From contig JAETSQ010000003.1 of assembly GCA_021769525.1 (NCBI GenBank), positions 36,151 to 100,150 of the forward strand: a stretch of DNA of 64,000 nucleotides, written 5' to 3'. Below the pieces are notes generated by a model. The model was not told the origin of the DNA and did not search any database. It worked only from the letters and a program-made list of their open reading frames with translations. The stretch comes from Oscillospiraceae bacterium (GTDB lineage: Bacteria > Bacillota > Clostridia > Oscillospirales > Ruminococcaceae). Numbering within the stretch: the stretch's first letter is position 1; each line of letters starts with the position of its first letter. Position numbers and translations under genes: made by a program. Below, one piece after another: positions 3,384 to 62,708 of this stretch.

Positions 3384-3466
3384 CTGGGGCGTTGCCCCAG
3401 CCCCCACTTCTTTTTCCTTTCGCGGGAAAAGAAAAAGAAGCAAAAAGAAAAGCGGCCAAAGTCCTT
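3384..3466 (+). repeat. Bipartite hairpin repeat, copy 1
   Basis: ctggggc-gtt-gccccag, then a 15-bp stem (14/15 paired) with GCGG loop, then caaaaagaa. Only 3 mismatches to the reverse complement of 40608-40690. Confidence 0.85.
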
Positions 3467-12798: not shown

Positions 12799-13263
12799 AT
12801 GAGGATGGAGGAGCTGCTTGCCTGTGTTTTCCTCTACCGGGAGGGGCTGATGTCCGGAGCGGCCTGCCGGGAAAAGCTGGATCAGCTCTTCCTGGAAGAC
12901 CCGGAGGATGAGCTCCTGCTGGAGCTGGAATGGAACTTCCGGGATATGAAGGAGATGGCGGTCCGGGTCTGGGAATACTGGGGGGCCCACACGAACAGCT
13001 TTTCTAACGAGGTTTTCGGCCGTTTCCTCATGGCCCGCCTGAAGGAGCTCTACCAGCGGGAGGAGCTGAATATCCACAGCTTTGCCGGGCGGATGTACAG
13101 CCTGTGGGAGGGGCTTCCCCCCTGGCTCCAGGATGTTCAGCCCTTTTGGACCCTCAGCTACGCCGACGACCCCCTCTCCTGGGGGGATGAGGCCCAGACC
13201 AGGGAGATTTACCGGGGGATGCTGGATTACTACGAGAAAGAGGACCCCGCCCCCATGGAATGA
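12799..13263 (+). CDS. Conserved hypothetical protein (154 aa)
   Basis: SD gggggag, typical codon usage, ...PFWTLSYADDPLSWGDEAQTR.... Its TGA stop is the MITE TSD. Confidence 0.75.
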   Translation: MRMEELLACVFLYREGLMSGAACREKLDQLFLEDPEDELLLELEWNFRDMKEMAVRVWEYWGAHTNSFSNEVFGRFLMARLKELYQREELNIHSFAGRMYSLWEGLPPWLQDVQPFWTLSYADDPLSWGDEAQTREIYRGMLDYYEKEDPAPME

Positions 13264-13482
13264 GAAGCCGTACCAATAGCCGCCGCACCCGTCTTGGCGG
13301 CAAATTTCCCGTCTGACTTTATCCCAAAAACTTGAAAGCCATAAAGGATTTCGGCGTTTTTGGGACTTCGTCAGCCAAACTGCGCCCGCAGGCGCGTCCA
13401 TAGCGCAACCGCCGCAGGCGGCTTTTAGCGCGGAGGAAAATTTTCTCGCCAATCCGTACACTTCGGCTAATGGTACAACTTC
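13264..13482. mobile_element. MITE, subfamily A copy 1 (219 bp, includes a 57-bp insert)
   Basis: TIRs gaagccgtaccaatagccg / cggctaatggtacaacttc (16/19). TGA at 13261-13263 and 13483-13485. Near-identical to 62471-62632 apart from the insert. Confidence 0.85.
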
Positions 13483-13501
13483 TGAGAAAGGAGCCTTTAT
13501 C

Positions 13502-13702
13502 ATGGAAAAATTTGTCCCCTATGAAAAACTCTCCAAGCGGAAAAAGCGGGAGCTGAACGCCAAGGGGCGGAAGGGCTGGAACGGGCTGAACCCCGTCACC
13601 CGCAGGCCCCCGGACCCCAAGGCCTATGACCGCAGAAAAGCGCCCCGGTGGCAGGAGGAGCCGCCGGAGCGTTTTTTTGTTGGTGCAGGCCGGGCTAGAT
13701 GA
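13502..13702 (+). CDS. Small basic hypothetical protein (66 aa)
   Basis: SD gaaaggag; MEKFVPYEKLSKRKKRELNAKGRKGWNGLNPVTRRP. Confidence 0.7.
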   Translation: MEKFVPYEKLSKRKKRELNAKGRKGWNGLNPVTRRPPDPKAYDRRKAPRWQEEPPERFFVGAGRAR

Positions 13703-19673: not shown

Positions 19674-19752
19674 TATGGGCTGCCGCCCATACCCGCCTTC
19701 TTTTTCTTCTTGCGGAAGAAGAAAAAGAAGCAAAAAGAAGAACGGCAAAGCG
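19674..19752 (+). repeat. Bipartite hairpin repeat, copy 2
   Basis: tatgggc-tgcc-gcccata, then cttctttttcttctt-gcgg-aagaagaaaaagaag, then caaaaagaa. Confidence 0.8.
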
Positions 19753-34315: not shown

Positions 34316-34477
34316 GAACCTGCATTCACAACCGTCTAACGCCGTCAGGCCGGGCCTTTTTTCGCCCTGCTGCGTTAAAAATCCTTGTAATACACCAAGT
34401 ATTCCTGCGGATTTTTGCCTTGCAGGACGGAAAAATTCCTCGGCCTGCCTGCATCATCCGGTCATGAATACAGGTTC
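34316..34477. mobile_element. MITE, subfamily B (162 bp)
   Basis: TIRs gaacctgcattcacaaccg / cggtcatgaatacaggttc (16/19), flanked by AAA on both sides; long internal rod hairpin. Confidence 0.75.
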
Positions 34478-40560: not shown

Positions 40561-40607
40561 GCCAGCGTTCTGTTAGCCCGGCGGCCCTTTGTTTTCCACT
40601 CTGTATC

Positions 40608-40690
40608 AAGGACTTTGGTCGCTTTTCTTTTTGCTTCTTTTTCTTTTCCCGTGAAAAGAAAAAGAAGTGGGGGCTGGGGCAACGCCCCAG
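40608..40690 (-). repeat. Bipartite hairpin repeat, copy 3
   Basis: Reverse complement differs from copy 1 at 3 positions; perfect 15-bp stem with ACGG loop. Confidence 0.85.
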
Positions 40691-55293: not shown

Positions 55294-55386
55294 GCAGGGG
55301 CTCCGCCCCCTGCACCCCCGCTTCTTTTTCTTCTCACGGGAGAAGAAAAAGAAGCAAAAAGAAGCAAAAAGAAGAGCGGCCAAAGG
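55294..55386 (+). repeat. Bipartite hairpin repeat, copy 4
   Basis: gcagggg...cccctgc, then cttctttttcttctc-acgg-gagaagaaaaagaag, then caaaaagaag duplicated. Confidence 0.8.
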
Positions 55387-61709: not shown

Positions 61710-62470
61710 GGAACATCCGCATGACCCTGGCCTACCGGGGCACCGCCTACCACGGCTGGCAGGTGCAGCAGAACGCCCGCAGCGTCTGCACCGTCTTCCA
61801 GGACGCCATGGAGGGGGTACTGGGGCGGCGGTACGATGTAAAGGGCTGCTCCCGCACCGATGCGGGGGTCCACGCCAACCGCTTCGTCCTTGCAGTCCGC
61901 TGCCCGGAGGATGTGCCCCCCGCCATCCCCTGCGGTGCCCTCCAGAAGGCGCTGAACGACCGCCTGCCCAGAGACATCGCTGTGCTGGACTGCGCCGACG
62001 CCCCGGAGGGCTTCCATCCCCGGTACGACTGTGTGGGGAAGCGGTATCTCTATAAAATTTGGAACAGCCCGGTGAAGAACCCCTTTTTGGAGGATCTGGC
62101 CTGGCAATATCGTTACCCAATTGACGGGGAGCTGGCGGATGAGGCGGCCCGGCGGTTTACGGGGCGCCACGACTTCACCTCCCTCTGTGCCGCCGGCGGG
62201 AGCGTGGAGGACAAGGTCCGCACCGTCTTCCGGTGCAGCGTCCGGCGGGAGGGGGAGCTGGTGACCCTCTCGGTGACCGGGGACGGCTTCCTCTACAACA
62301 TGGTGCGCATCCTTACCGGGACGGTGCTGGAGGTGTGCAGCGGAAAGCTCCGCCCGGAGGACATCCCGGCCCTCCTGGAGGCACGGGACCGCCGCAGGGC
62401 GGGCCCCACGCTGCCCCCCCAGGGCCTCTACCTGGACCAGGTTTTTTATCCCGGCGACGAAATTCTTTAA
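61706..62470 (+). CDS. truA: tRNA pseudouridine(38-40) synthase
   Basis: GTAYHGWQ, GCSRTDAGVHA, GDGFLYNMVRI, AGPTLPPQGLYL. Its TAA stop is the MITE TSD. Confidence 0.95.
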   Translation: MRNIRMTLAYRGTAYHGWQVQQNARSVCTVFQDAMEGVLGRRYDVKGCSRTDAGVHANRFVLAVRCPEDVPPAIPCGALQKALNDRLPRDIAVLDCADAPEGFHPRYDCVGKRYLYKIWNSPVKNPFLEDLAWQYRYPIDGELADEAARRFTGRHDFTSLCAAGGSVEDKVRTVFRCSVRREGELVTLSVTGDGFLYNMVRILTGTVLEVCSGKLRPEDIPALLEARDRRRAGPTLPPQGLYLDQVFYPGDEIL

Positions 62471-62632
62471 GAAGCCGTACCAATAGCCGCCGCACCCGTC
62501 TTGGCGGCAAATTTCCCGTCTGACTCTATCCCAAAAACTTGAAAGCCATAAAGGCTTCCTGCGTTTTTGGGACTTCATCAGCCCGAAAAATTTTCTCGCC
62601 AATTCGTGCACTTCGGCTAATGGTACAACTTC
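62471..62632. mobile_element. MITE, subfamily A copy 2 (162 bp)
   Basis: Same TIRs as 13264-13482; TAA at 62468-62470 and 62633-62635. Confidence 0.85.
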
Positions 62633-62708
62633 TAAAATTCGACATCTATTATTGTTATTATATATCTGTAATCTGCATCACAAAACGGCGGAAAGGGGGG
62701 CGGGCGGA

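Follow-up and report, generated by a model that had tools for sequence, protein, structure and literature searches.

Eukaryotic PIF/Harbinger transposons and Tourist-like MITEs share a 3-bp TWA or TNA target duplication and an IS5-related transposase. In bacteria, the small two-ORF insertion sequences (ISs) of the IS5 family (subgroups IS427 and IS1031) have a 3-bp T-N-A duplication and GA(A/G) termini in common. Classical bacterial MITEs (Correia/NEMIS, RUP, ERIC, YPAL) are short, non-coding and intergenic, carry TIRs, are transcribed into long hairpins, often together with adjacent genes; most of them are rich in A+T, and both their termini and their duplications are TA (PMC2229807).

The element described here comes from a 64,000-nucleotide stretch of DNA of an Oscillospiraceae bacterium ("the window", G000:C18:36151-100150), part of a draft genome of 2.04 Mb with 63% GC. 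Like the classical bacterial MITEs it is short, non-coding, intergenic and bounded by TIRs, and it forms a long hairpin; unlike them, it is not rich in A+T, its target duplication is T-N-A, and its three TIR subfamilies are all built on one architecture. The 3-bp duplication and the IS5-related transposase recall PIF/Harbinger, but the host is bacterial and the presumed partner transposase is of the small two-ORF type, without a second Myb-like protein. The closest comparison is with the IS5 family itself, whose related autonomous elements are 836-889 bp long and encode OrfA and OrfB, joined by a frameshift and matching NF033580, DUF4096, DDE_Tnp_1 and DDE_Tnp_1_2. In contrast to these ISs, the MITE has no autonomous copy in its own genome; only about 15-19 terminal bases are common to both, and its interior is not an internal deletion of any IS that we have seen.

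At two loci in the window, the triplet duplicated by the element is the stop codon of the gene upstream. Both loci are very probably insertions of a non-autonomous MITE, about 160 bp long and of IS5-family type; the coincidence with stop codons is real and very probably for the most part a by-product of how and where the element inserts.

Two insertions on stop codons

The original prediction described both insertions as MITEs whose target duplication is the stop codon of the host gene, and a direct reading of the two regions bears this out (Table 1). Copy 1 (13261-13485) reads ...ATGGAA TGA / GAAGCCGTACCAATAGCCG...CGGCTAATGGTACAACTTC / TGA GAAAGGAG and copy 2 (62468-62635) reads ...ATTCTT TAA / GAAGCCG...CAACTTC / TAA AATTCG, where slashes mark the ends of the element. 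In copy 1 the left triplet still ends the host ORF, which the insertion has left intact as predicted, and in copy 2 the gene stopped by the left triplet is confirmed as truA by its Pfam match. We also reproduced the predicted 19-bp TIRs of copy 1: left and right repeats are identical at 16/19 positions, which is far beyond chance.

Table 1. Mapped features of the window (positions are those of the window)
Feature	Positions	Strand	Basis
Host ORF of copy 1, 154 aa, no Pfam family, conserved in the genus	12799-13263	+	
Left target copy TGA, stop codon of ORF 12799-13263	13261-13263	+	Sequence, ORF calls
MITE copy 1, subfamily A, long variant (219 bp)	13264-13482	+	TIRs and TGA/TGA flanks
Left TIR of copy 1, GAAGCCGTACCAATAGCCG	13264-13282	+	
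Nested 59-bp GC-rich two-hairpin repeat in copy 1, absent from copy 2	13377-13435	+	
Right TIR of copy 1, GAAGTTGTACCATTAGCCG on the minus strand	13464-13482	-	
Right target copy TGA, directly before RBS GAAAGGAG (13486-13493) of ORF 13502-13702	13483-13485	+	
Subfamily C MITE, 162 bp, TIR GAACCTGCATTCACAACCG, flanks AAA/AAA (not T-N-A)	34316-34477	+	
truA (tRNA pseudouridine synthase), 254 aa	61706-62470	+	PF01416, E=7e-42
Left target copy TAA, truA stop codon	62468-62470	+	
MITE copy 2, subfamily A, standard 162-bp form	62471-62632	+	TAA/TAA flanks
Right target copy TAA after copy 2	62633-62635	+	

The gene that directly follows copy 1, ORF 13502-13702, is small (66 aa) and very basic, with a strong RBS and no Pfam family, and is conserved in two related genomes (G004 and G009). 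In the empty allele described below, the TGA lies 16 nt upstream of its ATG. The insertion has placed 222 nt of hairpin between both genes and left the RBS directly 3' of the element. The long hairpin had been predicted, and when computed, copy 2 indeed folds end to end into a single one (-61.8 kcal/mol, z=-8.1); the corresponding values for copy 1 are -86.5 kcal/mol and z=-5.2. An Rfam scan of the copy 1 region returned nothing relevant.

Empty sites hold a single triplet

For copy 2, we reconstructed the empty site and searched for it across the genus. In three sister species (G004:C125, G012:C3 and G042:C349) only one TAA stands before AATTCGACA; all of them read ...GACGAAATTCTGTAA AATTCGACA, without the element, and the alignment runs end to end, with 86% identity in G004. 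For copy 1, two rodent-gut metagenomes that are independent of each other (X12 and X14) have an empty allele, with one TGA, in their Logan contigs. These contigs join 13260 to 13483 and so omit 13261-13482, that is, 222 bp or 219 + 3, and the filled allele is present in another run (X1); contig-level read evidence of this kind gives the presence of an allele, not its frequency. Among sister species no strict empty site of copy 1 was found: either synteny breaks down or the site is already filled. At both loci, then, the empty site has one triplet and not both, as the original prediction required, so the triplets that flank the element arose by duplication of a stop codon as target. Close strains are polymorphic for the presence of copy 1, a sign of fairly recent movement.

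One of the occupied sites shows the same stop codon hit by a different subfamily. In G004 (L241, C72, about 2645-2828), the ortholog of ORF 12799-13263 ends in TAA, followed by a subfamily C MITE and a second TAA. This insertion and the subfamily A insertion of our genome (TGA/TGA) lie at the identical position before GAAAGGAGCC. Given that different subfamilies sit at one stop and that empty alleles exist, this stop codon was hit at least twice independently. It is a local hot spot, as would fit a strong match of the local sequence (T-R-A-GAAAGG) to the target motif.

A superfamily with three kinds of ends

In its own genome, BLAST and TIR-pattern searches recovered nine copies with both TIRs, one 33-bp mini-copy and one diverged variant, or about 11 subfamily A copies and about 30 for subfamilies A, B and C together. 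All the subfamily A copies have T-N-A flanks. The family is also present in five further genomes of the genus and in many MAGs of rodent-gut Oscillospiraceae, whose labels are Angelakisella, Lawsonibacter, Anaerotruncus or "uncultured Oscillospiraceae". From own and related genomes we collected 74 non-redundant subfamily A copies, 55 of which have identical flanking triplets, and each of these 55 perfect duplications is a T-N-A (TAA 25, TTA 18, TGA 6, TCA 6), as the prediction had it for IS1031-type elements. The TIRs are conserved over all copies. The 162- or 219-bp element encodes no transposase, the ORFs that overlap it mostly entering from flanking sequence. Being short (<300 bp), non-coding, bounded by TIRs and dispersed in many copies, with a target duplication established by comparing filled and empty sites, the element is a MITE, and the prediction holds that it is non-autonomous and duplicates a 3-bp T-N-A target. 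Read on one strand or the other, any T-N-A spells a stop codon, so the question about stop codons becomes whether the triplet is the working stop of a gene.

Subfamilies A, B and C have their length (about 160 bp), fold, layout and central module in common and differ in their TIRs, which are GAGCCTGTTCAGAATCTCC in B and GAACCTGTATTCACAACCG in C. Their termini, GAAG in A, GAG in B and GAAC in C, are all of the GA(A/G) type. Besides the subfamily C element of the window, the genome holds at least 9 more copies of C and about 11 of B. Our literature search, which is no proof of absence, returned no description of this element, nor of MITE duplications that coincide with stop codons; the superfamily, three TIR subfamilies with one architecture in uncultured rodent-gut Oscillospiraceae, is apparently previously undescribed.

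Two other origins were considered and rejected. A MITE derived from IS630/Tc1-mariner would have a TA target and a 2-bp duplication, but here the duplication is 3 bp long and its variable middle base is identical on both sides. A REP/BIME mobilized by a RAYT (Y1 transposase) would have neither TIRs nor target duplications, and both are present.

The additional length of copy 1 is due to the GC-rich repeat, which the contigs of other copies skip (13377-13436). The same 59-bp insert lies at the identical internal position in three copies: copy 1, G000:C5:129820-130039 (98% identical to copy 1) and C23:24176-24395 (93%). Three loci with the insert at the same internal position indicate that the composite transposed after nesting. 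The repeat (CTGCGCCCGCAGGCGCG...CCGCCGCAGGCGGC...) is nested in MITEs of all three subfamilies, occurs also at G000:C5:129868-129926, C23:24224-24282, C8:10081-10138 and in L026, and has about 25 related free-standing copies, several of them at contig ends. A 62-bp pyrimidine/purine hairpin repeat (CTTCTTTTTCTTTTCCCGTGAAAAGAAAAAGAAG core), often found beside the GC-rich one, is dispersed in intergenic DNA, in the window at 3399-3460, 19697-19749, 40601-40675 and 55315-55363 and genome-wide at more than 80 places. Neither the GC-rich repeat nor the other repeats scanned matched Rfam.

Two further loci depart from the standard form. A diverged 169-bp variant (G000:C42:6522-6690) joins a subfamily A-like left end to an unrelated A+T-rich interior and has unequal flanking triplets, TGA and TAA. 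At L040 (G004:C157, from 956 onward), a subfamily A left end directly adjoins what is left of the C-terminal coding part of an IS30-like transposase (...ENTNGLLREFFPKGYDL...); here another IS was either entered or truncated by the MITE.

Related insertion sequences belong to the IS5 family

The original prediction placed the element, by its GA(A/G) ends and T-N-A duplication, with the IS5 family, and this assignment is supported at the family level because related ISs match IS5-family profiles. An 889-bp IS in another genome (G421:C76) has subfamily B TIRs and a TAA duplication and encodes OrfA (DUF4096) and OrfB (DDE_Tnp_1, DDE_Tnp_1_2), which together span the whole of NCBIfam NF033580, "IS5 family transposase". 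The ends of a multicopy IS in G250, GTACCCGTACCAATAGCC, match the subfamily A TIR at 16/18 positions and have TNA flanks, and relatives of this IS in G350 and G412 have GAAYYYGTACCAATA ends; the copies in G250, G341, G350 and G412 are truncated, decayed or interrupted. A protein-based metagenome scan returned eight relatives, and the three that were checked all lack the GTACCAATA core. One of these three (L254) is an 836-bp IS with subfamily C-like ends (GAAGCTGTATTCAAC), a TAA flank and two ORFs that overlap at an A8 slip site. We take this two-ORF frameshift layout to fit ISfinder subgroup IS427 at least as well as the predicted IS1031. Subfamily B matches the 889-bp IS in its TIRs, and subfamily C, like a mini family, matches the ends of the 836-bp IS; for subfamily A the nearest match is the G250 end, at only 16/18. 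Members of this mini family are 67-bp elements (GAAGCTGTATTTATAACCG...TACAGCTTC) with TTA flanks at L033:1388-1454 and L021:1629-1695, whose ends match the 836-bp IS over the first 11 (L033) or 13 (L021) bases.

The search for a transposase with matching TIRs, in contrast, came back empty for this assembly and for an exact subfamily A partner. Searches with PF01609 and PF13586 profiles gave no match in any of the six MITE-bearing genomes of the genus (own plus five), in draft assemblies that may drop multicopy ISs. When two related transposases were compared by tblastn with the own genome and all MITE loci, only an unrelated Streptomyces locus came up. No full-length IS with the exact subfamily A TIRs (GAAGCCGTACCAATAGCC ends) appeared in scans of a genome collection and of metagenomes. 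In the public genome collection, the TIR pattern occurred at 115 loci, none with a TIR pair 0.7-4 kb apart that encloses a transposase; these loci are MITEs of about 160 bp or shorter and chance matches in unrelated phyla. A metagenome scan for a transposase C-terminus fused to a subfamily A end also gave no match. As the MITE-bearing assemblies hold no IS5-type transposase, we infer mobilization in trans.

How often are stop codons hit, and why?

Insertion was scored against genes called with a home-made codon-usage model trained on the own genome (1811 genes, 86% coding; calls spot-checked at truA and at a DUF975 protein on C42). Each element was excised in silico, and the null was a random T-N-A in the same spacer, flanking stop codons included. 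Subfamily A occupies 53 independent sites across genomes, 12 of them exactly on a called stop codon, against 7.1 expected over the 43 evaluable sites (P=0.024). For subfamilies A, B and C in the own genome, 8/21 insertions are on stops (6.5 expected, P=0.24). Pooled, the figure is 16/55 independent evaluable insertions, with 11.7 expected from the uniform T-N-A null (P=0.055) and 11.9-13.0 from leave-one-out, motif-weighted nulls (P=0.015-0.08). A genome-wide null gives a very different impression: stop codons are 11.7% of the tolerated T-N-A sites, and 8/21 is then a 3.3-fold excess (P=0.0017), which vanishes once the spacer is conditioned on. The ten insertions called "inside gene" by our caller are taken with those calls as they stand.

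The insertion sites themselves follow the motif W-N-T-(A>>G, A 84%)-A-R-R-R, with enrichments at P between 1e-8 and 1e-3. The base at +1 is a purine at 91% of sites (61% in the background, P=7e-7), and the middle base is A or T at 84% (46% in the background, P=1e-8). Spacers with an insertion have a median length of 154 bp and a median of 7 T-N-A sites. Where a start codon faces the insertion, 20/45 lie at most 30 nt upstream of it.

The special relation to stop codons that the prediction implied is thus weak. The coincidence is frequent, but conditional on the spacer the hits are only 1.2-1.4 times the expectation. Could the transposase or a host factor specifically select the junction of stop codon and next RBS, so that the landing would be a property of the enzyme? 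There is something to be said for it: of the 44 insertions with a facing stop codon in the spacer, 16 are exactly on it and only 5 are 1-16 nt away, the purine preference after the triplet is strong and one-sided, a residual excess persists under the motif-weighted nulls, and the copy 1 stop was struck independently by subfamilies A and C at the same position. This double hit keeps the idea alive, at low probability. Yet the conditional excess is borderline, the motif alone lifts the expectation to about 12-13/55, hot spots are usual for sequence-preferring transposases, and insertions are also found in divergent promoter spacers (11) and elsewhere in spacers (28 more). Overall, we consider dedicated selection of the junction unlikely.

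Retention by function is more doubtful still. Here the hairpin would act as a transcript stabilizer, terminator or decoupler, and copies at gene ends would be kept for that reason. The stability of the end-to-end hairpin and the presence of copy 2 in 4/4 metagenomes examined speak for such a role; the RNA runs searched hold almost none of this organism's sequence. Against it, copy 1 is polymorphic, sister species do without copy 2 and without any replacement for it, both orientations occur (28 versus 19), and a palindrome is inherent to any MITE made of two inverted ends, so that we give this account very little credence. The stable fold, in a genome rich in other short hairpin repeats, could even suggest that the element is no transposon at all but a structured RNA gene or a REP/RAYT-type repeat flanked by chance triplets. 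We regard this as next to impossible: TIRs are present and match the ends of IS5-family ISs, Rfam has no counterpart, the perfect duplications are T-N-A without exception, and the precise empty sites already contradict it.

A probable by-product of the T-N-A rule

Our preferred reading, insertion of a non-autonomous IS5-type MITE, would work as follows. The element is mobilized in trans, probably by a small two-ORF, frameshifted DDE transposase of the IS5 family supplied by elements of 836-889 bp. The enzyme would cut the target at T-N-A with a 3-nt stagger, and repair of the gaps would duplicate the triplet. When that triplet happens to be the TAA or TGA of a gene, the left copy would still terminate the ORF, the 3' untranslated or intercistronic region would begin with the element, and the right copy would come to precede a downstream feature, often the RBS of the next gene. 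Copy 1 would be a variant that went on transposing once it had acquired the GC-rich repeat.

About 30% of copies have landed on a stop codon, and we attribute this high share mainly to three conditions: the motif W-N-T-(A>>G)-A-R-R-R matches a stop codon followed by a purine-rich RBS; T-N-A sites are scarce, since the genome is GC-rich and its spacers are short; and purifying selection presumably removes intragenic insertions. What these conditions leave unexplained is an excess of 1.2-1.4-fold at most. There is a slim chance that this clade of the IS5 family prefers the stop/RBS junction, T-(A/G)-A with its purine run, as a safe landing site. If this were true, MITE subfamilies would repeatedly and independently hit the same stops in related species, and a long hairpin would be placed between co-transcribed genes with neither of them broken.

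With a filled and an empty allele, copy 1 provides a natural experiment on what a hairpin of 220 nt does when it separates two co-transcribed genes. More generally, in a GC-rich and compact genome the T-N-A rule yields frequent "stop-codon duplications" without dedicated targeting, which calls for caution with similar claims.
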